From assembly GCF_016127575.1 (NCBI RefSeq), contig NZ_CP066018.1, positions 510,001 through 542,000 on the forward strand: a stretch of DNA of 32,000 nt. The letters are read 5' to 3'. The DNA is from Cupriavidus necator. Its GTDB lineage: Bacteria > Pseudomonadota > Gammaproteobacteria > Burkholderiales > Burkholderiaceae. A program made the position numbers and the translations under genes. The notes under the pieces were generated by a model. The model saw only the letters and a list, made by a program, of their open reading frames with translations. It was not told the origin of the DNA and did not search any database. Positions 2,139 to 32,000 of this stretch are shown here, one piece after another; the stretch's first letter is position 1; every line of letters starts with the position of its first letter.

Positions 2139-2753
2139 ATGCCCGACACCCTGCACGACTATCTTTACCTCGCCTCGCAGAGCCCGCGCCGCCGCGAGCT
2201 GCTGACCCAGCTCGGCGTGCGCTACGAACTGCTGCTGGCCGATGACGACGAGGATGCCGAAGCGCTCGAGGCCGTCCAGCCCGGCGAGACCCCCGACGAC
2301 TACGTCCAGCGCGTCTGCGCGCTGAAGGCCGAAGCTGCGCTGCGCCGTCGCGAACGCCGCGCGCTGCCCGATGCGCCGGTGCTGACCTCCGACACCACGG
2401 TCTGCCTGGGCGGCCGCATCCTGGGCAAACCCGCCGACGGCGCCGATGCCGCGGCCATGCTGGGCGCGCTCTCGGGCGGCACCCACCGCGTCCTGACCGC
2501 TGTGACGATCGTGTCGACCACGGGCATGCGGCATGCGCTGTCGATCTCAGAAGTCACCTTCCGCCCGATGCAGCCCGCCGAGATCGAACGCTACGTCGCC
2601 AGCGGCGAGCCGCTCGGCAAGGCCGGTGCCTACGGCATCCAGGGCCGGGCGGCCGAGTTCGTCGAGCGGATCAGTGGCAGCTATTCAGGTATCATGGGCT
2701 TGCCCTTGTTTGAGACGGCGGCGTTACTTCGCCAGGCCCGCCTGCAGTTCTGA
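2139..2753 (+). CDS. maf: Maf-like nucleoside triphosphate pyrophosphatase
   Basis: 204-aa ORF with [22 protein letters not shown] and [10 protein letters not shown] motifs typical of the Maf/YhdE family. Confidence 0.85.
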
Positions 2754-2839
2754 GCAGCGCCCTCCGTGCCCAGACAAGACCCGGCCCAGCGCCGGGCCAC
2801 CCTATACAGCCGGGCCACCGGCGACGCGTTTCACCCGCT

Positions 2840-4306
<1,467 letters not shown>

Positions 4307-4325
4307 AGATGCCGGCGCAGGCATG

Positions 4326-4353
4326 GAAAGGCCCGCTCACTGGCGGGCCTTTC
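4326..4353. terminator. GC-rich hairpin between convergent genes (probable bidirectional terminator)
   Basis: GAAAGGCCCGC-tcactg-GCGGGCCTTTC, an 11-bp perfect stem, lies between the rng stop (4306) and the stop of the minus-strand gene at 4369. There is no strong T-tract. Confidence 0.5.
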
Positions 4354-4368
4354 CGCATTCTGGCCGGA

Positions 4369-4683
4369 CTAGGGCCGGATCACGACTTGCGGACTCACCA
4401 CGAAGGCAGGTTCGGGCTGGTAATACACAGCCGGCGGCGGCTGGTACACGACCGGCCGGTCCTTGCACTTGCGCTCTTCCTTGTACTCGCCGTTGTCTTT
4501 CCACTTGCGCTTGATCTTGCAGTTGCCGACCCAGAACTCTTCCTTGTAGTCGCCGCCCTTGTGCCGGCGCGCGTAGCGGTGATCATCATCGTCGTCCCAG
4601 TCGTCATCGGCATGGGCGGCGGCGGGGAGGGTGCCAAGGAGCACGGGCAATACGATGAGGGCAACAAGGGCGCGGGGCTTCAT
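4369..4683 (-). CDS. small secreted hypothetical protein (acidic run, Pro/Tyr-rich C-terminus)
   Basis: Internal ATG at 4683 gives MKPRALVALIVLPVLLGTLPAAAHA, a clear signal peptide, then DDDWDDDDDHRY...KEEFWVGNCKIKRKWKDNGEYKEERKCKDRP. The longer 215-aa upstream extension looks non-coding. Confidence 0.55.
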   Translation of the reverse strand: MKPRALVALIVLPVLLGTLPAAAHADDDWDDDDDHRYARRHKGGDYKEEFWVGNCKIKRKWKDNGEYKEERKCKDRPVVYQPPPAVYYQPEPAFVVSPQVVIRP

Positions 4684-4952
4684 TTTGGCGGCGGCGAGCG
4701 ATGGTTGAGAAAGGCTAGCACGCCGTGTTCCGCATCTGTGTATCAAGCTGTTTACGAACGTAACTGCGCTGCAGCGCCTGCGCGTGTCCGCTAGCGTCCG
4801 TCTCCTTACGGACTCGGTGATGGTCCTACTCCAATTCCGTTTGCCATCCGCTATAACTAAGCCAAGGTAGTCAGCGGCATCCGCACGGATGCCGCGCCCG
4901 GCTTGCCGCCCCGATGCGGGGCGCGGCCCGGTCGGCAAGCAAGGAGTCCGGC

Positions 4953-5465
4953 ATGAACGCCACGAACCATGGGACCTGTCTGCTGGCCCTTCTGTTGTCG
5001 GTGGCGTGCGCGCCATTGCCGATTGTCAAGCGCGCCCCCGCACCGCCGCCCGAGGCGAAGGGCGAAGCAATCGCCGCCGCGCCCAAGGAGCGCGCCACCC
5101 CGATCGCGAACAAGACCATCAACATTGCCGCCGCCTGCAAGCGCACCGAGGAAGACGGCTTCCGCGAAGACGCGCTGATGGACGTCAAGGCCAACGAGGT
5201 GCGTGCGCTCAAGTGGAAGCTATGGGTATCGCGGCGCGGCAGTTGCGAATTCAACCTGGCCGAGTTCCGCCAGGTCCGCGCGACCCCGCACATCGAACTG
5301 CAGGCCATCGACGGCAGCCAGTGCAAGCTGCTGGTGTGGCAGGATCCGCGCCGCGTGACGCTGGCCCATAACCGCTGCGAGAAGCACTGCACGCCCGGCA
5401 TCTACGAGCAGGCGTGGCCGGTGCTGTTCGACCCAAAGAGCGGTGCCTGCGCCGAGGTGCGCTGA
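4953..5465 (+). CDS. secreted or lipoprotein-like hypothetical protein
   Basis: ATG at 4953 is preceded by AAGGAG (4941-4946). The N-terminus MNATNHGTCLLALLLSVAC is signal-peptide-like with a weak lipobox. No family recognised. Confidence 0.6.
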   Translation: MNATNHGTCLLALLLSVACAPLPIVKRAPAPPPEAKGEAIAAAPKERATPIANKTINIAAACKRTEEDGFREDALMDVKANEVRALKWKLWVSRRGSCEFNLAEFRQVRATPHIELQAIDGSQCKLLVWQDPRRVTLAHNRCEKHCTPGIYEQAWPVLFDPKSGACAEVR

Positions 5466-5477
5466 GCCGCTGCGGCA

Positions 5478-6068
5478 TTACTTCGCTTTCGGCACCCGGC
5501 CCATCAGGTAGAACTCGTCGTTCGGGCGCATGCTGACGGTGTTGGCCATCCGGTTCGACAAGCCGAAGAACGCCGTGATCGCGGCAATATCCCAGGCATC
5601 CTCCTCGGAAAAACCGTGCTCGCGCAGCGCAGCAAAGTCGGCATCGCCCACTTCATGCGACGCCTTGCACACCTTCATCGCGAAGTCTAGCATCGCGCGC
5701 TGGCGCTGCGGAATATCCGCCTTCAGGTAGTTCACCGCCACCTGGTCCGCCACCAGTGGCTTCTTCTCATAGATGCGCAGGATCGCGCCATGCGCCACCA
5801 CGCAGTACAGGCACTGGTTGGCACCGGAAGTCGCCACCACGATCATCTCGCGCTCGCCCTTGGTCAGGCCGCCCTCCTTGAGCATGAGCGCGTCGTGGTA
5901 GGCGAAGAACGCGCGGAACTCGTCGGGACGGTGCGCCAGCGCCAGGAAGACGTTGGGGACGAAGCCGGCTTTTTCCTGGACTTCCAGGATGCGGGCGCGG
6001 ATGTCGTCGGGGAGGTCGGTCAGCGCGGGAACGGGGTAGCGGCTGATGGCGAATGCCGGGTCGGACAT
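5478..6068 (-). CDS. carboxymuconolactone decarboxylase / AhpD-like peroxidase-related protein
   Basis: ATG at 6068 (MSDPAFAISRYPVP...). The CLYCVVAHG CxxC-H motif and overall helical pattern are typical of the AhpD-core/CMD family. Confidence 0.75.
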   Translation of the reverse strand: MSDPAFAISRYPVPALTDLPDDIRARILEVQEKAGFVPNVFLALAHRPDEFRAFFAYHDALMLKEGGLTKGEREMIVVATSGANQCLYCVVAHGAILRIYEKKPLVADQVAVNYLKADIPQRQRAMLDFAMKVCKASHEVGDADFAALREHGFSEEDAWDIAAITAFFGLSNRMANTVSMRPNDEFYLMGRVPKAK

Positions 6069-6248
6069 GGTGGTCTCCTGTTGGATAGGCGTCATCGATC
6101 GTGAGCTTCTGATGCAGATACTAACGGATCGGCATGGGTGTGGCGGGCGCCATGTCGCCCATGCATCGCACGGACACATGTCCCCTGCATAAGGCATACT
6201 ACGCACCTTCCGAACCAGGCAGGCATACTGCCCACCATACTGTTCCTG

Positions 6249-7235
6249 ATGAAACGTATTCTCATCGTCAAGCTGACCTCTCTCGGCGACATGGTGTTCA
6301 CCCAGCCGCTGGTCGCGGACCTGCAGCGGGCCTTTCCCGGCGTCAAGATCGACTGGATCGCCGACTCATATTGCGCCGACGTGCCGCGCTGGAATCCGAA
6401 TATCGAGCGTGTGATTTCCGCGCCGCTGCGCGGCTTCAAGAAATCGCGCAATTGGGCTGGCTTGCGTGCGATCTTCAGCGCGCTGCGTGAACTGCGTCGC
6501 GAGAAGTACGATGCGGTGCTGGACGTCCACGGCGTCTACAAGAGCGCCATCGTGACGTTCCTGGCACGCACGCGCAATCGCTATGGCTACCCCGTGGCAG
6601 AGTTGGGCGAGAGCGGCGCTCGCTTCGCCTACAACCATGTGTTCCAGCCATTTGTCGAAGAAGATTGCGCGCGGCAGCGGATGCGCCGCGCCGTCAGCCG
6701 CGCCCTGGGCTATGAGCTGACCAGGGACATGGACTACGGCCTGGAGATGCCAGCAGACACGCCGGCGCCGGCCGCCAAGGGTCCGTACGCGATGCTGTTC
6801 CATGCCACCTCGAGCGAGGAAAAGAAGTGGCCGGTCGCCGACTGGATCAGCGTGGGCAGCGCGATCTCGGCGCGCGGGCTGCGCGTGCTGGTGCCCTGGG
6901 GCAACGACGCGGAGCGCAAGGAAGCCGAAACCATCGCCGCCAGCGTGCCCAACGCCGAAGTGATGCCACGCCTGAGCATCACCGGTGTGGCGCAGATGGT
7001 AGGCAAGGCATCGCTGGTGGTTGGCATGGACACCGGCTTCGTGCATATCGCCGATGCGCTGCGCCGCCCGACCGTGATCCTGTTCACGACCACGTCGCGC
7101 CACCTGTACGGCGTCGATGCGCCGGGCCGCGTGGTCTCGCTGGGCGGCGGCGGCGTGGTGCCGCGGCGGGATCAGGTGCTGGCTGCCATCGATGAAGTGC
7201 TGGGCGTGCAGCCGCCCGTCACCTCGCCAAACTGA
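6249..7235 (+). CDS. waaC: lipopolysaccharide heptosyltransferase I (GT9)
   Basis: ATG at 6249 (MKRILIVKLTSLGDMVFTQP). From memory it aligns along its length with E. coli WaaC: LFHATSSEEKKWP, LVPWGNDAERKEAE, VGMDTGFVHIADAL. Confidence 0.85.
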   Translation: MKRILIVKLTSLGDMVFTQPLVADLQRAFPGVKIDWIADSYCADVPRWNPNIERVISAPLRGFKKSRNWAGLRAIFSALRELRREKYDAVLDVHGVYKSAIVTFLARTRNRYGYPVAELGESGARFAYNHVFQPFVEEDCARQRMRRAVSRALGYELTRDMDYGLEMPADTPAPAAKGPYAMLFHATSSEEKKWPVADWISVGSAISARGLRVLVPWGNDAERKEAETIAASVPNAEVMPRLSITGVAQMVGKASLVVGMDTGFVHIADALRRPTVILFTTTSRHLYGVDAPGRVVSLGGGGVVPRRDQVLAAIDEVLGVQPPVTSPN

Positions 7236-23938: not shown

Positions 23939-24808
23939 TCAGAACAGCGAACCCTGCGGATCGTCCTTGCCGCGGGGCCCCCTGACTGGCGGGCGGAAAC
24001 GCGACGTATCCAGCTCGAACCGGTTGTAACGAAACCCTAGCCGTTCGGCGGCCTTGTAGAAACGCTGGCGCAGCAAGTCCGCCCACACGCCCGTACCGCG
24101 CATGCGCGAGGCAAAGCTGGCATCGTAGGCTTTGCCCTCGCGCATGTCGCGCACGCGGTTCATCACCCGTTCCGCGCGCTCGGGAAAATGCGCCAGCAGC
24201 CATTCCTCGAACAGAGGCCGCACTTCCCAGGGCAGCCGCAGCACGATGTAGTTTGCATAGACGGCGCCCGCTTCGTGCGCCGCTTCCAATACACGCTCCA
24301 GGTCGGGTTCGGTGATGAACGGGATCACCGGGGCGATGCTCACACCCACCGGGATGCCGGCGTCGGTCAGCGTGCGGATGGTGCGCAGCCGGCGTGACGG
24401 CGTGGCCGCGCGCGGCTCCAGCGTGCGCGCGATGCCAGCATCCAGCGTGGTGATGGTGACCGCCGCCACCGCCAGCCGCTTCGCCGCCATCGGCGCGAGC
24501 AGGTCGATATCGCGCTCGATCAGAGACGACTTGGTAATCAGCGCCACCGGGTGGTCGCACTCGTTCAGCACCTCCAGCACGCCGCGCGTGATGCGCTGTT
24601 CGCGCTCGATCGGCTGGTAGGCGTCGGTGTTGACGCCCAGCGCGATGGTCTCGCAGCGGTAAGACGGCCGTGCCAGCGCCTCGCGCAACCGCTCGGCGGC
24701 GTTGGCTTTGGCATAAAGCTGCGTTTCAAAGTCCAGCCCTGGCGACAGGTCCAGGTAGGCGTGCGTCGGCCGGGCGAAGCAGTAGATGCAGCCGTGTTTT
24801 ATGGTCCG
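23939..24808 (-). pseudogene. 5'-truncated native radical-SAM gene (PA0069/SplB-like family)
   Basis: The open frame reads ..RTIKHGCIYCFARPTHAYLDLSPGLDFET...DDPQGSLF and is collinear with residues ~82-361 of the intact paralog at 24957..26042. An in-frame TGA lies at 24809-24811. Roughly the first 80 codons and the first Cys of CxxxCxxC are absent. Homology stops at about 24800, where G+C drops. Confidence 0.75.
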
Positions 24809-24956: not shown

Positions 24957-26042
24957 ATGACATCACTTCGCCCGGGACTTCGCAAGGGCCGAGGCGCGCT
25001 GTCCAACATTGAATCCAGGTTCGACAATTGGGACAGAGCGCACGACGACGATGCACTTGCAGCCATTTTAGAGCTCGAGGGTGAACGCCCCGCGCCCAAA
25101 ACAACTGTAGCATTTGAGGATGCAAAATCAATCATCTCGAGAAACCAATCGCCAGATGTCCCATTTGACCAGTCGATTAATGCATACCGGGGATGTGAAC
25201 ATGGTTGCTCGTACTGTTTTGCCCGGCCTACGCATGCATATTTAGGCCTTTCCCCCGGCCTTGATTTTGAGACCAAGCTTACTGCGAAGCCAAATGCTGC
25301 TGTGTTACTCGAGAAAGAGCTTTCAAAACGTACCTATATACCTAGCGTAATTGCCCTCGGTACCAATACTGACCCATACCAGCCTATTGAGCGAGAACAC
25401 CAGCTGACTCGCAGAATCCTCGAGGTGCTCGAGGCTTTCAATCATCCGGTAGCGATTACTACCAAGTCGCATCTCGTGACACGCGACATCGACATCCTCT
25501 CGCGGATGGCGGAGAAGGGTCTCGCTCGCGTCTATCTCTCCGTCACCACGCTGGATGCGGAGCTTGCTAGGAGGATGGAGCCGCGTGCCAGCACCCCATC
25601 TAGGCGAGTGGACGCTATTCGCATGCTGACTGCTGCCGGGATACCCACCGGTGTATTGGCCGCGCCTATGATTCCCGCGCTTAACGATTATGAACTGGAG
25701 AATATCCTAAGCGCAACTGCAAATGCCGGTGCGTCCGCTGCCGCTTATGTGTTGCTCAGATTACCGCTGGAGGTGCACGACATCTTCATCGAATGGCTCG
25801 AGCAACACTACCCCGGACGGAAGAATCATGTCCTGAGCATTATTGAAAGCATGAGAGACGGCAAGCATTATGACGCCGAATTCGGGCGCAGAATGCGCGG
25901 CACGGGCATATTCTCAGAGCTGATTGCCAAACGATTCGAGCTTGCATGCAATCGGCTCGGCCTCAATCAGGAACGCAGAAAACTGCGTACCGACCTATTC
26001 CAGGCACCCATTAATCCTTCGCCCCAGGGAAGCTTATTCTGA
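24957..26042 (+). CDS. radical SAM protein, PA0069 / SplB-like (COG1533) family, intact lower-G+C copy
   Basis: ATG at 24957 follows AGAGAGG. It carries the CEHGCSYC radical-SAM cluster motif, and its 361 aa are collinear with the truncated native copy on the opposite strand. Confidence 0.85.
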   Translation: MTSLRPGLRKGRGALSNIESRFDNWDRAHDDDALAAILELEGERPAPKTTVAFEDAKSIISRNQSPDVPFDQSINAYRGCEHGCSYCFARPTHAYLGLSPGLDFETKLTAKPNAAVLLEKELSKRTYIPSVIALGTNTDPYQPIEREHQLTRRILEVLEAFNHPVAITTKSHLVTRDIDILSRMAEKGLARVYLSVTTLDAELARRMEPRASTPSRRVDAIRMLTAAGIPTGVLAAPMIPALNDYELENILSATANAGASAAAYVLLRLPLEVHDIFIEWLEQHYPGRKNHVLSIIESMRDGKHYDAEFGRRMRGTGIFSELIAKRFELACNRLGLNQERRKLRTDLFQAPINPSPQGSLF

Positions 26043-26547: not shown

Positions 26548-27253
26548 ATGACTGCCCATTGCCCGGAATGCTACGGCGAACGCGAATGTAGTGTCCATGG
26601 AGAGGTCAAAGTACCGTGGGAATGGACGGATGGACCGCATAGCGTCAACGGCCAGACGGATCATCGACTACTGCAGTGCTTGGGTTGCAAGACCGTGCTC
26701 TACTGGTCCAGCAGTTGGAATTCCGAAGATTGGGGATGGCCGCACTGGTGCCGACGGCAAGGAGCAAATCTATCACCCGCGTACCGTCACGACTTTCCCT
26801 ACACCGCAGCGCGTCAGCCGGCGTCCTGAATGGCTCGCCAAGATCGAGCAGATCGACGCCCATCTCTCGCAGATCTTGCACCAGACCTACATCGCCCTGG
26901 AAGCGGATGCGTTCATTCTAGCGTCGGTGGGCTTGCGTACCGCCTTTGACCGGACTACCGAGATCCTGAAACTCGATCCCGGACACACGCTGGAACAGAA
27001 GGTCGCCCTGCTTAAGGACAAGGGCTACATCGGGGAAACTGAGGCGGCAATTCTGTCAGTGGTTACCGATGCGGGCAATGCGGCCGCCCATCGCGGGTGG
27101 TCCCCTGGGGCTGCGGAATTCCGGGTCTTGCTTATCGCATTGGAGCAGTTCATCGAACGCACGGTGATTCAGGGCACCACTGCCCTAGGCATCGCCCAGC
27201 ACATCCCACCGCGGCACCCGCGCCCGAAGCGTGCATTCTCGGGGGCAAAGTAA
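26548..27253 (+). pseudogene. zinc-ribbon + DUF4145-like protein, apparently split by a +1 frameshift near 26730
   Basis: Frame 1 (26548..26829) starts MTAHCPEC...LLQCLGCKTVLY, i.e. CxxC...CxxC. Frame 2 (to 27253) carries LEQKVALLKDKGYIGETEAAILSVVTDAGNAAAHRGW, a DUF4145-type helical motif. The upstream part of frame 2 and the downstream part of frame 1 both look non-coding. The G-run TGGGGA lies at 26731-26736. Confidence 0.5.
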
Positions 27254-27396: not shown

Positions 27397-28182
27397 ATGT
27401 CGGGTAGCATTCGCCGTGACGTGAAAGCCCCGCAAGGGGCATTGATCCCTCTGCCCATGTTTTCGTACGCCTGCAGCCAAACGGCCGCCCAGCACCCGCT
27501 CGCCTCTTTCCGCACGCCCGTCGACGGGCCGGAGCTGGAGATCGTGCGGTTGTTCTGCGAGACGCTGCCCGCCCGTGCACCGCGCAACCGCGCCACGACC
27601 GTATTTCTTGAACCCAGGATCGCGGGCTGCTTTCCCGATGTGGTCATCGTGCAGTGGGATCCCGCCATTGCGGCGGCCTGGGTGCCTGCGCGGGAGCACC
27701 TGGAAAGCGGCGATACGTTCTGGCTGCACTACCTGCATCAGGTCGGCACCCTCGATCCCACCGTCCTGTGCGAGCGACTGGGCAGGAAACGCGGCCTGCA
27801 GACATGGGAACGCCTGCTTGCCGCAGAGGTGGGCCGGCAGGCCGGGGACCGGTTGCGGCGCAAGCCACTGGCCGAGACCTATGCGATCAAGCGCCTCGTG
27901 GCTGTGGAGGCCAAGATCGGCAACTGGCGCCGCGGCCTGGAGCAGGCCTTCCAGAACACGTGGTTCGCCTCCGAGTCATTCCTGCTGCTCGATCGGCTTG
28001 AGGGCAAGGATGACCTGTTTCTCCGCGCCGCCGACCTAGGTATCGGCCTGATCGAGCCGGCCCACGGCATCGACGACAGCCGGCTGCCCGCCCGATGCGG
28101 CAAGCATCCGGTCTCCCAGGCGTCCTGGCTCTTCAACGAGTGCGTGCGGCGCGACGGTCCAAACACGGCGAGCCGACACTAG
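27397..28182 (+). CDS. hypothetical protein with PD-(D/E)xK nuclease-like motifs
   Basis: FLEPRIAGCFPDVVIVQWD (Asp codon 27637-27639) and LVAVEAKIGNWRRGLEQA (E-x-K at 27907-27915) flank a helical, wHTH-like segment. The start is ambiguous (27262, 27286, 27397 or 27457); 27397 was chosen because the upstream Pro-rich translation looks non-coding. The stop TAG directly abuts the kinase ATG. Confidence 0.55.
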   Translation: MSGSIRRDVKAPQGALIPLPMFSYACSQTAAQHPLASFRTPVDGPELEIVRLFCETLPARAPRNRATTVFLEPRIAGCFPDVVIVQWDPAIAAAWVPAREHLESGDTFWLHYLHQVGTLDPTVLCERLGRKRGLQTWERLLAAEVGRQAGDRLRRKPLAETYAIKRLVAVEAKIGNWRRGLEQAFQNTWFASESFLLLDRLEGKDDLFLRAADLGIGLIEPAHGIDDSRLPARCGKHPVSQASWLFNECVRRDGPNTASRH

Positions 28183-29028
28183 ATGCACGCGCCCCTGACC
28201 GATCTGCCTGCGGAATTCCAGCGTTTCCAGAATCTGCATTTCATTGCCTCGGGGGGACAGAAGATCGTCTTTCGCGGCACGTGCCCGCAGCATGGCGCCA
28301 TCGTCCTGAAAGTGTTCAATCCGGGAACCGACATGGCGCGGTTCGAACGCGAACTGAGCGCGGTACAGCGCATCCAGTGCCCCCTGACGCCCACCATCCT
28401 GGAATCGGGCATGACCCGGCAAGGCGGCCAACCGATCCCGTACGTGGTCGAGTCGTTCATCCCCGGCGCATCGATTCAGCAGCACCTGGACGCCGGCAGC
28501 CTGCAGGACCCGAATGTCGTCCGACTGGCGACCGACATCCTCCAGGTGCTCACCCTGACCGAGCAACGCGGTATCGTGCATCGCGACATCAAGCCTGCCA
28601 ACCTGCTCCTCCATGCCGACACGGGGGCGATCTGGCTGCTGGACTTTGGCATCGCGCGCCATCTTGACCGGACCGCCCTCACCGTGGGCCCCATCGGTCC
28701 CTGTACCGCCGGATTCGCGCCACCGGAGCAGTTCAACGCGCTCGCGGCCGAAGTCGACGTGCGCAGCGACCTGTTCGCCTTGGGCGTCACCCTTCATACC
28801 TGCATCGAAGGCCGCAACTTCTATTGCGAGGGCGCACGAGACCACGTGGAGGTCTTCCAGCGTGTGCAAAGCGTTCCCTTACCGCGGCTCACGCGCGAGC
28901 CTTGCGGTGTCGCGGGATTCGCCGACCTGGTGATGGCGCTCACGCAGATACGGCGCAGCCATCGGCCGCACTCGGCCGCCGAGGCACGTGACTGGCTCGC
29001 AGAACTGTTGGTCCAATACCAAGCATGA
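28183..29028 (+). CDS. Hanks-type serine/threonine protein kinase (stand-alone catalytic domain)
   Basis: 281 aa with IVLKVF (Lys), RFERE (Glu), VHRDIKPANLL (HRD at 28579-28587), LDFGIAR (DFG at 28642-28650), GFAPPEQ and DLFALGVTL. Confidence 0.85.
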   Translation: MHAPLTDLPAEFQRFQNLHFIASGGQKIVFRGTCPQHGAIVLKVFNPGTDMARFERELSAVQRIQCPLTPTILESGMTRQGGQPIPYVVESFIPGASIQQHLDAGSLQDPNVVRLATDILQVLTLTEQRGIVHRDIKPANLLLHADTGAIWLLDFGIARHLDRTALTVGPIGPCTAGFAPPEQFNALAAEVDVRSDLFALGVTLHTCIEGRNFYCEGARDHVEVFQRVQSVPLPRLTREPCGVAGFADLVMALTQIRRSHRPHSAAEARDWLAELLVQYQA

Positions 29029-29091: not shown

Positions 29092-30297
29092 GTGGAACTG
29101 CATCTGCAAATGGGGCACGGCATGATGGACCATTGCCGCGTGCTGGTCGGCGCATGGCGGGGCGGCACCGTCGTGCTGAGTCCGCGCGATCTGGACATGC
29201 AGCAAATGGTCCGCCTGTCGGAGGATCTGGCGAGAGATGGCGGACGGGTCCTGCTTGACCCGCAGATGTTCCTGCCGCAGGCCAGCCACCCACGGCTGGT
29301 CGGCCATGCGCACTGGGCGCAGGGCGGCAACCTGCAACAACCTGCCACCGTGGCGCACATCATGGAACGCCTGATCGACATGAATGCGGCATGCGGCGCG
29401 CAGCAGATCATCCTGCCTGGCGCCCTGGCCGCAAAGGTCGACGCCGCCTGGCTGGATGCCATGGCGCAGGTCGGCGAATGCGCCCAGCGCCTGGGCGTCG
29501 ACAGTGCCCGCGCCATGCAGACCATTGCGCTGAGCTATGACGCTGTTCGCGATGACAAGCAGGTGGAAGCCGTTGTCGAGGCCATGGACGCCTGGCCCGC
29601 GCGCACCATCTATCTAATCGCCGAAGCCCCGTCGGGGGTCTATCTGGTGAACGATCCGACATGGTTCGCCAATATTCTGGACATCGTCGCCAGCGCCCGC
29701 TTGAGCGGAAAACAGGTCATGCTCGGCTATGCCAATCAGCAACTGCTGGTGGCCGCCTGCGCAGGCGCGAATGCCATCAGTTCGGGGACCTGGATGAACG
29801 TCCGTATCTTCATGCAAAATCGCTTCCTTGCCGCTGACGAGGAAGACCGGAAGACGCGCTCCACCTGGTACTACGCCCCCAATCTGTTCTCGGAGTACAG
29901 GATCCAGAATCTGGATATTGCCCAAAAGCTGGGCTTGCTCGACCATCTGCGCACACCGGACGATTTTGGCAGCGGGCATGCAGACGTCCTGTTCTCCTCG
30001 CTCCAGCCGACGCTGGCGGGCTTTGCCGAACCCAGTTCGTTCCGGCATTTCCTGCAGTGCCTGCGGACGCAAGCCCGCGCGGCCTCGCTGGGTTCATTCG
30101 AGAGCACGCTATCCAGTTACCGCCAGGCGCTCGACGCCGCCCAAGCAGTGCTCGAGCGCCTGGATAAAAAGTCCGTCTCAAGCAAGCAACGCAACATCCT
30201 GGCCAGCGAATGCATCGATGCCGTCCGCGCTGGCCTGCATGTCCTCGAACGGAACCACGGCCCTCGCCTGCGCAGGCTTTGGGGAAGACTGTCATAG
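29092..30297 (+). CDS. hypothetical 401-aa protein, no family recognised
   Basis: GTG start at 29092 is preceded by AGGGGGA. The long ORF is same-strand with protein-like composition and alternating hydrophobic-strand/helix segments (VVLSPRDLD, QIILPGA, TIYLIAEAP, VMLGYAN..GANAISSGTWMN). Confidence 0.6.
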   Translation: MELHLQMGHGMMDHCRVLVGAWRGGTVVLSPRDLDMQQMVRLSEDLARDGGRVLLDPQMFLPQASHPRLVGHAHWAQGGNLQQPATVAHIMERLIDMNAACGAQQIILPGALAAKVDAAWLDAMAQVGECAQRLGVDSARAMQTIALSYDAVRDDKQVEAVVEAMDAWPARTIYLIAEAPSGVYLVNDPTWFANILDIVASARLSGKQVMLGYANQQLLVAACAGANAISSGTWMNVRIFMQNRFLAADEEDRKTRSTWYYAPNLFSEYRIQNLDIAQKLGLLDHLRTPDDFGSGHADVLFSSLQPTLAGFAEPSSFRHFLQCLRTQARAASLGSFESTLSSYRQALDAAQAVLERLDKKSVSSKQRNILASECIDAVRAGLHVLERNHGPRLRRLWGRLS

Positions 30298-30468: not shown

Positions 30469-32000
30469 ATGACGAGTTCGAAATATCAGTTTCTGGCGCC
30501 CACGGTGGCGCTCCTTTCCGACAAGGTCGTACTGGCCCAGGCCTGGAAGAAAACGCACACCTATATCCGCAAACATAACTGGTTTGCCGACACGCTCGAA
30601 CTCGACACGTCGGCGGTCGATCTTGAGCAAACCTTGGAACAGTGGGCGCAAACGCTGCGCACAGGCCAATATCTTAACCAGGCGGCCAGGATGGTTCCCG
30701 CACCCAAAAGCGGCCGCTGGGTCATCGGCACCGTGCCCCAGCGGCCAGAGCCTGGCTGGTATCCCGTGGTCGACCCCGGTGAAGCGCCCGTTCTCCGGCC
30801 ACTCGCGCATCTTCCCGTCCGGGAGCAGACCGTGGCCAGTGCCCTCATGCTCTGTCTTGCGGATTGCATCGAAACGCTCCAGGGGCCCACCATCGGGCAT
30901 GCCGACTTCGCCGAGGCGCAGCGCATGGGCGTGTACAGCTATGGAAACCGCCTGCTGTGTTCCTGGACCGAGCTCCTGCCGGGGACGAAACATGCCCGGT
31001 TTCGTTGGGGCAACTCCGACATCTACACGCGATACTTCACCGACTATCAGCGATTCATCGACCGGCCCAAGTACTTTGCCGAACAGGCGCGCGACAAGGG
31101 TGGCACCGTGCTGCTCGTCAAGCTGGATCTGTCCGCTTTCTACGACAACATCGACGTTGGACGACTAATCGAGTCCCTGCGGCGACACTATGCGAAGTTT
31201 TGCGAAACATTTCCTGATTATCCCAAGCACGACGAGGATTTCCTCGCGGTGGCGCGCGAAGCCCTGACGCTGCGCTGGGATCCTCAGGACTCGACCTATG
31301 CGCCCCTGCTACGCGACCGCGCTCTACCCAGAGGTCTGGCGCAGGGTCTGGCCGCCAGCGGCTTCTTTGCCAACGCCTACCTGATCGACTTCGACAAGGA
31401 AATTGGACGTCAGCTCAACACCGCGATTCACTTCGAAGGAGACGAGTTCACTCTGGTGGACTACTGTCGGTACGTCGATGATCTGCGTATCGTCGTCTCG
31501 GTCGACGCCAGGCTGCCGCACACACACATCCCTGGCGTGATTACCCAATGGGTCCAGCGTATCCTGGACGTGACGGTGAACGAGCATGTCGAGGACGACC
31601 GCAACGTTCTGAAACTGAACGCACGCAAGACCGAGCACGAAGAGTTCGCGGCCGTCAGCGCGGAAAGTGGCGATGTGGCGGCCATGCGCCTGCTGCAGCA
31701 AAGCCTGAGTGGCCCGTTTGATCTGGAATCGCTCCAACAGACCTCGGCGGGCCTGAACGGCCTTCTCGCACTGGCCGAACTCAGCCGCGAGGCCGAGACA
31801 AGCGCTCCCTCGTCTTCGCCCTTGTCCCTCATCGAACGGCCCAAGCTACAGGTCAAGGACGATACGCTGACGCGGTTTGCAGCGTTTCGCCTTGTCAAAA
31901 GCCTGCGACTGAAGATGAGCTTTCTGGGCGAGGAGGCGGCCGGTGTCGCGCACGAATGCGAAGCCGTCGCGCGTCGCCTCGCGGCCGCCTGGGTCACGAA
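30469..32000 (+). CDS. reverse transcriptase (UG/Abi-like, non-retroviral), 3' end beyond the window
   Basis: Own translation from the ATG at 30469; the frame opens after a TGA at 30385-30387 and has no stop through 32000. RT motifs are VLLVKLDLSAFYDNID, LPRGLAQGLAASGFFANAYL, YCRYVDDLRIVV (YVDD at 31471-31482) and LKLNARKTEH. It is not in the ORF track because the ORF is open-ended. Confidence 0.85.
   Translation, partial: MTSSKYQFLAPTVALLSDKVVLAQAWKKTHTYIRKHNWFADTLELDTSAVDLEQTLEQWAQTLRTGQYLNQAARMVPAPKSGRWVIGTVPQRPEPGWYPVVDPGEAPVLRPLAHLPVREQTVASALMLCLADCIETLQGPTIGHADFAEAQRMGVYSYGNRLLCSWTELLPGTKHARFRWGNSDIYTRYFTDYQRFIDRPKYFAEQARDKGGTVLLVKLDLSAFYDNIDVGRLIESLRRHYAKFCETFPDYPKHDEDFLAVAREALTLRWDPQDSTYAPLLRDRALPRGLAQGLAASGFFANAYLIDFDKEIGRQLNTAIHFEGDEFTLVDYCRYVDDLRIVVSVDARLPHTHIPGVITQWVQRILDVTVNEHVEDDRNVLKLNARKTEHEEFAAVSAESGDVAAMRLLQQSLSGPFDLESLQQTSAGLNGLLALAELSREAETSAPSSSPLSLIERPKLQVKDDTLTRFAAFRLVKSLRLKMSFLGEEAAGVAHECEAVARRLAAAWVT

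Follow-up and report, generated by a model that had tools for sequence, protein, structure and literature searches.

In this study, we analyzed a 32,000-nt stretch of Cupriavidus necator DNA (NZ_CP066018.1, positions 510,001 to 542,000; this whole stretch is the window, and positions in it are counted from its first letter) and relate a small protein kinase gene found there to the genes that accompany it in other bacteria, in viral contigs and in an archaeon. The conserved unit is a cassette of three genes with the kinase in the middle, which we call NUC (~240 amino acids, aa), KIN (~283 aa) and TIM (~401 aa). All three lie on the forward strand of the window. NUC (27457-28182, +) encodes a 241-aa PD-(D/E)xK-like protein with a predicted winged-helix insert, KIN (28183-29028, +) a minimal Hanks-type Ser/Thr protein kinase of 281 aa, and TIM (29092-30297, +), which begins with GTG, a 401-aa protein assigned to an orphan (beta/alpha)8-barrel family from its AlphaFold2 (AF2) model and an alignment of 66 sequences.

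KIN is a real Hanks-type kinase and, to judge from its residues, apparently a catalytically competent one. Its match to the Pfam family Pkinase (PF00069) has an E-value of 1.1e-19 and a score of 71.3 bits against a cut-off of 31.7, and the 2703 database proteins that match the family at E ≤ 1e-5 place the open reading frame (ORF) far beyond chance; the best 120 of these 2703 are all about 277-321 aa long. In a family-profile alignment with solved PknB kinase domains (E = 4e-42), residues 23-275 are covered, which leaves no space for a transmembrane, PASTA or FHA domain, so that the protein consists of the catalytic domain only. The expected motifs are in place, namely K43 (in VLK), E57, H133-R-D135-I-K-P-A-N140, D154-F-G156 and P180-P-E182, and in a family alignment of 41 sequences (39-80% identity) K43, E57, H133-R134-D135, K137, N140, D154-F-G156, P180, E182 and R261 are invariant. 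So is the activation-loop residue T167, in a kinase of the RD type. Both its P+1/APE region and its subdomain XI arginine (R261) are as in protein kinases, unlike small-molecule kinases. These data bear out what a first-pass annotation, made from the DNA letters, had proposed, that is, a bare catalytic domain with all key residues and no transmembrane, PASTA, FHA or other sensor domain; catalytic residues that vary among homologs, which that annotation had named as evidence against its view, were looked for and every one proved invariant in the 41 sequences. The same kinase protein sequence is found in AM260479.1, CP039287.1 and CP196472.1, at ~965-987 kb of the C. necator H16-type chromosome 1.

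The synteny around this kinase is strict. Searches with TIM as the probe retrieved 84 loci, 80 of them on metagenomic and four on viral (IMG/VR) contigs, and in 83 of the 84 a kinase gene lies directly upstream of TIM; for L101, the remaining one, no more than 206 nt upstream are available. NUC precedes the kinase in about 64 of these loci, which is all those with enough sequence except L145. That locus (kinase at 2255-3103) is the sole one with ample upstream DNA (2.2 kb) and no detected NUC homolog, and its NUC could be diverged or replaced. Approached from the kinase, the picture is the same: all nine homologs examined, from 80% down to 42% identity, sit between a gene for 209-261 aa and a gene for 390-428 aa, and in the loci checked by tblastn these flanking genes are NUC and TIM homologs. 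A scan of genome contigs by kinase motifs gave almost exclusively generic kinases among the matches listed (27-36% identity); L011, the sole family member among them, again has its kinase within a triad. A scan of the flanks, covering 223 ORFs of several dozen separate loci, gave no fourth conserved gene.

The spacing of the genes is as regular as their order. In the window the NUC stop abuts the kinase start (TAG-ATG, 28180-28185, +), just as the first-pass annotation had read it, with the kinase ATG at 28183 right after the TAG of 28180-28182. Across 68 three-gene loci, the nearest kinase start lies at -4 nt from the NUC stop in 16, at -1 in 5 and at 0 in 4, so that the two frames overlap or abut in 25 of 68, and most of the remaining loci have a candidate kinase start no more than about 25 nt from the NUC stop. 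The abutting TAG-ATG is therefore a family trait. Tight coupling of the kinase gene to its upstream neighbor, as had been proposed, is borne out by this arrangement, and the spacing is consistent with translational coupling of NUC and kinase. The gap between kinase and TIM is 63 nt in the window, with a median of ~78 nt across the 68 loci.

This gene order crosses wide taxonomic distances. NUC, KIN and TIM follow one another on plasmids of Bacillus mycoides and B. bombysepticus (L181 and L182), where TIM identity is 27%, and on one from the haloarchaeon Natribaculum breve (CP095393.1; L183, 3495-6107), in a stretch that carries no gene annotation and in which hidden Markov model (HMM) searches gave E-values of 3e-10 for NUC, 1e-48 for KIN and 6e-36 for TIM. 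The Bacillus and archaeal loci keep the D...ExK residues of NUC, the HRD and DxG motifs of the kinase, and the SPxD and SGxxxNxR motifs of TIM. On the B. bombysepticus plasmid, TIM falls into two ORFs (5001-5486 and 5490-6173) and is probably inactivated.

For the upstream partner, 241-aa homologs and public gene calls set the start at ATG 27457, as opposed to the GTG at 27097 of the mechanical ORF. NUC has at least 1181 family clusters (50% identity) at E ≤ 1e-3, 268 of which reach E ≤ 1e-30, from soil, peat and wastewater metagenomes and from Proteobacteria, Acidobacteriota, Planctomycetota, Myxococcota, Bacillota and one haloarchaeon. Its core motifs are E26/E52, P60-D61, E151-x-K153 and Q163, followed by a C-terminal S220-x-x-x-W224-x-x-N-E; in 72 sequences G24, E26, P60, D61, E151, Q163, S220 and W224 are invariant and E52, K153 and N227 are conserved in at least 90%, so that the family columns read E...PD...ExK...Q. 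NUC has no match in Pfam, NCBIfam (June 2026 release) or PADLOC v2. Residues ~80-140 give weak winged-helix matches (Lrp/AsnC at E = 0.0085, MarR-type and recurrent weak winged helix-turn-helix (wHTH) Pfam families), and a lenient Pfam scan of 72 family members likewise returned weak winged-helix families only. The AF2 model, built from 8 sequences, is poor (pLDDT, a predicted score for the local distance difference test, 57); at this low confidence it places a strand right after D61, then the wHTH, a strand ending at E151-x-K153 and a helix bearing Q163, an order compatible with a PD-(D/E)xK core. The nearly invariant SxxxWxxNE motif falls within a low-confidence region. A fold search with this model found VC1899 (1xmx) first, at a non-significant E of 0.03, and otherwise mostly winged-helix regulators. 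Homology to a DUF4365 (PD-(D/E)xK) protein was considered and rejected, with an hhalign probability of 0.4% and 9 columns around ExK aligned. The nuclease-like identity that the first-pass annotation gave this gene has gained the conserved D...ExK motifs of 72 sequences and found no significant HMM or fold match; on its motifs we regard it as plausible, and NUC as a likely substrate or effector of the kinase.

TIM gave a far better model (pLDDT 93.2, predicted TM-score 0.93), in which a (beta/alpha)8 barrel leads into long helices at the C-terminus that form a helical bundle. The columns invariant in 66 sequences are Q6, S30-P-R32-D33, D56/Q58, E178-H179-P180, Y213/N215 and S231-G-T-W-M-N-V-R238. 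Active sites of TIM barrels lie at the C-terminal ends of the strands, and the invariant polar residues sit at or shortly past barrel-strand ends in the predicted model, which is consistent with an enzyme pocket. TIM had no match in Pfam, NCBIfam (June 2026), PADLOC v2 or PDB sequences, nor did a lenient Pfam scan of 66 family members return anything consistent. We take it as an orphan enzyme family with a conserved polar pocket, the pocket being a feature of the model. RefSeq labels both NUC and TIM 'hypothetical protein'.

The surroundings of the triad are highly variable and often rich in mobile and defense genes. Among loci whose kinase is 67-69% identical to that of the window, the triad lies beside the portal and terminase genes of a P2-like prophage in Cupriavidus sp. 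SS-3 (L009), next to PglZ and an SNF2 helicase (L175), next to a CBASS CD-NTase and Cap15 (L176/L177), and with an HNH gene and a P4-like satellite carrying AlpA, Ogr/Delta and an integrase (L178); the four IMG/VR contigs place it on viral sequence as well. Mobile-element genes that recur in the flanks are phage integrases, Mu/rve transposases, resolvases, TrwC relaxase, type IV secretion system genes and RepA. Recurrent defense genes are HmaB/C, CapP, DUF499, BilABCD, AbiEi/Eii, restriction-modification types I, II, IIG and III, BrxL, DrmMI, dGTPase, DruA, Fic and M78 peptidases. That P2 and P4 hotspots serve as reservoirs of defense systems is documented (PMC9122126). In the window itself, GC content is 0.50-0.58 at 24.7-27 kb and 0.67-0.72 in the adjoining upstream DNA, a drop that fits a block of foreign DNA set between core genes. 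The window contains no tRNA gene and no Rfam match, and no island-flanking direct repeat was found in L001.

We therefore read the triad, with a probability of roughly 60%, as a self-contained, horizontally mobile immune module directed against phages or other mobile elements. We infer the defense function from the mobile spread, the variable flanks rich in defense and mobile genes, the strict synteny and the precedents for kinases in defense. Several points weigh against this reading. At some loci, L180 for example, the flanks look ordinary, and the association with defense islands is frequent, not universal, and was tallied without a background rate from flank genes called by a crude ORF picker. 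The nuclease label of NUC draws on motifs and predicted topology, with no significant HMM or fold match and the low pLDDT noted above, and the fold matches of TIM are scattered over several unrelated barrel superfamilies.

If the triad is such a module, NUC and the kinase would be made in a fixed ratio through translational coupling and would form a complex. Infection, or a signal relayed by the TIM enzyme, would then free the RD-type kinase for autophosphorylation of its activation loop around T167, after which it would phosphorylate its partners and/or host or phage proteins. The outcome may be that the DNA-binding PD-(D/E)xK protein is licensed to cut DNA, or growth arrest as with Stk2 and KKP. 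TIM, as a second enzyme, could serve as sensor, as co-effector or as the reset ('eraser') part, the role of the PP2C phosphatase in KKP and TerY-P. We put forward only tentatively the composite proposal of an undescribed bacterial and archaeal immune system in which a bare kinase gates a wHTH/PD-(D/E)xK nuclease and TIM is a sensor or a non-PP2C 'eraser'; the specific mechanism of a phosphorylation-gated nuclease is doubtful.

Among the other explanations, the one that survives best is that the triad serves first of all as a toxin-antitoxin or addiction module of mobile elements, made up of three parts, with the kinase or NUC as toxin, TIM or the wHTH protein as antidote or autoregulator, and phage defense as a secondary effect. 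The triad is indeed found on plasmids, prophages, satellites and integrative elements, and the wHTH of NUC could act as an operator-binding repressor. There is also a precedent in KKP (PfkA-PfkB-PfpC), a kinase-based tripartite toxin-antitoxin system in prophage hotspots whose kinase toxicity is countered by a PP2C phosphatase (PMC11341870). Like the triad, KKP has three genes, is centered on kinase activity and is found in P2/P4-type prophage contexts, and it defends against phages. It differs in that it has a pair of kinases, which carry CSD and FHA domains, and a PP2C as antitoxin, whereas the triad combines a single bare kinase, lacking CSD and FHA, with a wHTH/PD-(D/E)xK-like protein and a TIM barrel, and no phosphatase, PP2C included, was recognized in it. 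No known antitoxin fold was recognized in NUC or TIM either, and many of the loci are on chromosomes and, in the flanks looked at, have no mobile-element gene next to the triad. Such a module would moreover overlap with abortive-infection defense rather than exclude it. We consider an addiction module unlikely.

Two further systems invite comparison at this point. TerY-P, a conserved triad (VWA, PP2C and an STK-ZnR/OB protein) reported to function as, or alongside, defense systems (PMC11090510), resembles the NUC-KIN-TIM triad in containing a Ser/Thr kinase; its kinase has a ZnR/OB tail, which the triad kinase does not, and a search of 66-72 family members with a limit as loose as E ≤ 1 detected neither VWA nor PP2C in NUC or TIM. 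CapK/CapS, a DNA-damage kinase and repressor encoded upstream of varied immune operons (PMC13373217), shares the combination of a kinase with a DNA-binding substrate protein. Membership in that system was ruled out: CapK belongs to the anti-sigma-factor-type (GHKL) kinases and CapS is a repressor with a STAS domain, whereas the triad kinase is of the Hanks type, has a partner showing PD-(D/E)xK-like and wHTH features, is always followed by the TIM gene, and has downstream genes that are not consistently same-strand defense operons.

It is very unlikely that the triad is a module for DNA or nucleotide modification and restriction, in which TIM would be an enzyme like tRNA-guanine transglycosylase (TGT) or DpdA, or one that processes nucleotides, NUC would restrict and the kinase would regulate. 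The idea draws on the PD-(D/E)xK motifs and DNA-binding wHTH of NUC, and on the global TM-scores of TIM, the best of which is to a TGT (2ash; TMq 0.47, E = 6e-4), with viral 'queuine tRNA-ribosyltransferase' entries also among the top scores. By Foldseek, with E-values of ~1e-4, TGT is no better a match than a broad set of barrels, namely HpaI aldolase, IMPDH, sugar epimerases, DRE-TIM lyases, xylanases and glycosidases, so that the likeness is that of a generic barrel. TIM has no sequence match to TGT or DpdA, and no cysteine occurs among its invariant or near-invariant columns, so that a zinc site of the TGT type is not evident. The P+1/APE region and subdomain XI arginine of KIN likewise mark a protein kinase, not a small-molecule kinase.

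The first-pass annotation had alluded to a pairing of the kinase with a reverse transcriptase (RT). On that idea, kinase and neighbors would be the accessory or regulatory module of the RT gene that follows TIM, in a new kinase-RT defense system. The RT gene enters the window at 30469 and runs past its end (30469-32000, +), so that the window holds the 5′ 1.5 kb of it (Drt1a, PDLC03745, E = 1.3e-165). Two observations favor the pairing. The four genes share one strand, with a TIM-RT gap of 171 nt in which no terminator-like site is predicted, and in the metagenomic relative L007/L008 the four-gene block is kept at ~64-82% protein identity (NUC 82%, KIN 80%, TIM 64.5%, RT 80%) despite different outer flanks. 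Beyond the C. necator loci and this relative, no RT was found beside the triad in the loci examined. The 84 TIM-retrieved loci, for which phmmer with the UG1 RT was included, gave no RT within 10 kb, nor was one seen near the 67-69% identical kinases or in other kinase-homolog loci, in the loci of P0003-P0006, P0016, P0092 and P0111, or in the Bacillus or archaeal loci. One flank ORF (loci L132-L174) did match the PADLOC model RT_UG5-nitrilase at E = 4.5e-57, perhaps through a nitrilase domain only; it was absent from the ten largest flank ORFs that were re-scanned, and no RT turned up there when the UG1 RT was used in phmmer.

The RT is moreover complete in itself. The full protein (1258 aa; L001, 12287-16063) matches the Drt1a model over positions 5-1176 of 1176, nitrilase included, and is a complete stand-alone DRT1 (UG1 RT-nitrilase). 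In a survey of UG/Abi RTs, a transmembrane protein was the sole associate of UG1, seen with 33 of its 175 members, and no kinase association was found (PMC9226505); DRT1 acts alone or with the transmembrane Drt1b (PMC9226505, PMC13275509), and a 2026 structural paper reports robust immunity with no partner (PMC13275509). No Drt1b match in PADLOC was found for the kinase, NUC or TIM, or in the three genes after the RT. These three genes (L001, 16181-19264; 292, 210 and 395 aa) have no Pfam match on record and no PADLOC match, and they are absent from L007, which has an HNH_5 protein in their place. In the H16 reference AM260479.1 (L003), an ISL3-family insertion splits the RT after ~61 codons while the triad is intact; the window, CP039287 and CP196472 carry an intact RT gene. 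The kinase-RT system, tempting as it is, is highly improbable and we reject it: triad and DRT1 are same-strand neighbors in C. necator and both residents of a defense island, and we are highly confident that the triad is a functional unit independent of DRT1. The earlier view that regulation of so bare a kinase must come from its partners holds in so far as two fixed partners, NUC and TIM, were found, in which its regulation and targets probably lie; the evidence speaks against the RT as one of them.

Still less probable is a single-gene defense kinase of the PD-T4-6 or Stk2 type, with flanking genes that are mere passengers. PD-T4-6 of E. coli and staphylococcal Stk2 do share with KIN the use of a Hanks-type Ser/Thr kinase as an anti-phage component, and the best PADLOC defense matches of KIN are PD-T4-6 models (PDLC04042, E = 2.3e-38, positions 10-275 of 292). 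Stk2 also acts as a single gene. PADLOC and the literature treat PD-T4-6 as a single-gene system, whereas the triad kinase has two constant partner genes and no extra domain, in a strict three-gene operon. The PD-T4-6 models, however, also tag a PASTA kinase of housekeeping function that all S. thermophilus genomes carry (PMC11514479); the label therefore detects the Hanks kinase domain only and is non-diagnostic. Of passengers one would not expect that all three genes stay syntenic at practically all loci, from Proteobacteria through Bacillota to Halobacteria, with frames that overlap or abut. KIN also falls short of the NCBIfam equivalogs for BREX type 2 PglW (36.1 bits versus 990) and MADS MAD6 (76.1 versus 460), which are large multidomain proteins as against its 281 aa. 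By these comparisons, the triad belongs to none of KKP, TerY-P, the DRT1 accessories or PglW/MAD6, and with its three genes it departs from the single-gene layout of PD-T4-6.

Least probable of all is an ordinary housekeeping signaling operon with no role in phage or mobile-element biology: soil bacteria commonly have Hanks kinases as regulators and a few loci have metabolic neighbors, but the distribution is patchy and crosses domains, the flanks are highly variable, plasmids, prophages and satellites carry the triad, which repeatedly lies next to defense systems, and in the window it sits in the block of lowered GC between core genes.

Some features around the triads deserve mention in their own right. 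Upstream in the window, a radical SAM gene of the PA0069 family is present in two head-to-head copies, one at 23939-24688 (-), of high GC and with an apparently truncated N-terminus (249 aa), and one at 24957-26042 (+), complete (NCBIfam E = 1.6e-153) and with a GC of ~0.50-0.56. Their junction coincides with the GC drop, which suggests an island boundary or recombination between the copies. A DUF4145 gene at 26548-27253 appears to be frameshifted, with a Cys-rich zinc-ribbon-like part (CPEC...CLGC) in the frame of ORF 26548-26829 and DUF4145 (Pfam E = 4e-10) in the frame of 26591-27253; it could be a pseudogene or a case of programmed frameshifting, and public calls for it are only 207-220 aa long. 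In L007, the stretch upstream of the triad (3385-6678) holds a P4 cII-like gene, a 'Beta_protein' gene (PF14350), a gene for an M78 peptidase and one for a 218-aa protein, and the locus also has DUF4365, Y2-transposase and integrase genes. The cII-like and 'Beta_protein' genes recall the P4 gop-beta-cII defense locus; homology of TIM to this 'Beta_protein' was ruled out (hhalign probability 0.2%). In L009, a pair of genes for a Pkinase (350 aa) and a PP2C (304 aa) lies at 16-2054, ~8 kb upstream of the triad and by RNase PH, and looks like chromosomal housekeeping unrelated to the triad.

In conclusion, we found no description of the triad in a search that covered open-access papers and bioRxiv, and it is probably an undescribed kinase-centered defense cassette. 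To our knowledge, kinase-based bacterial immunity comprises few systems (Stk2, PD-T4-6, KKP, TerY-P and PglW), with sensing and targets mostly unresolved. The triad is compact, with three genes in ~2.8 kb, and its kinase is a bare catalytic domain, so that all specificity must reside in the two fixed partners. As NUC and TIM have no models, current defense-annotation pipelines would overlook the system or give its kinase alone the wrong label 'PD-T4-6'. Characterization of the triad would establish two new families of proteins, the orphan TIM-barrel enzyme among them, and would probe whether phosphorylation-gated nucleases exist in prokaryotic immunity.

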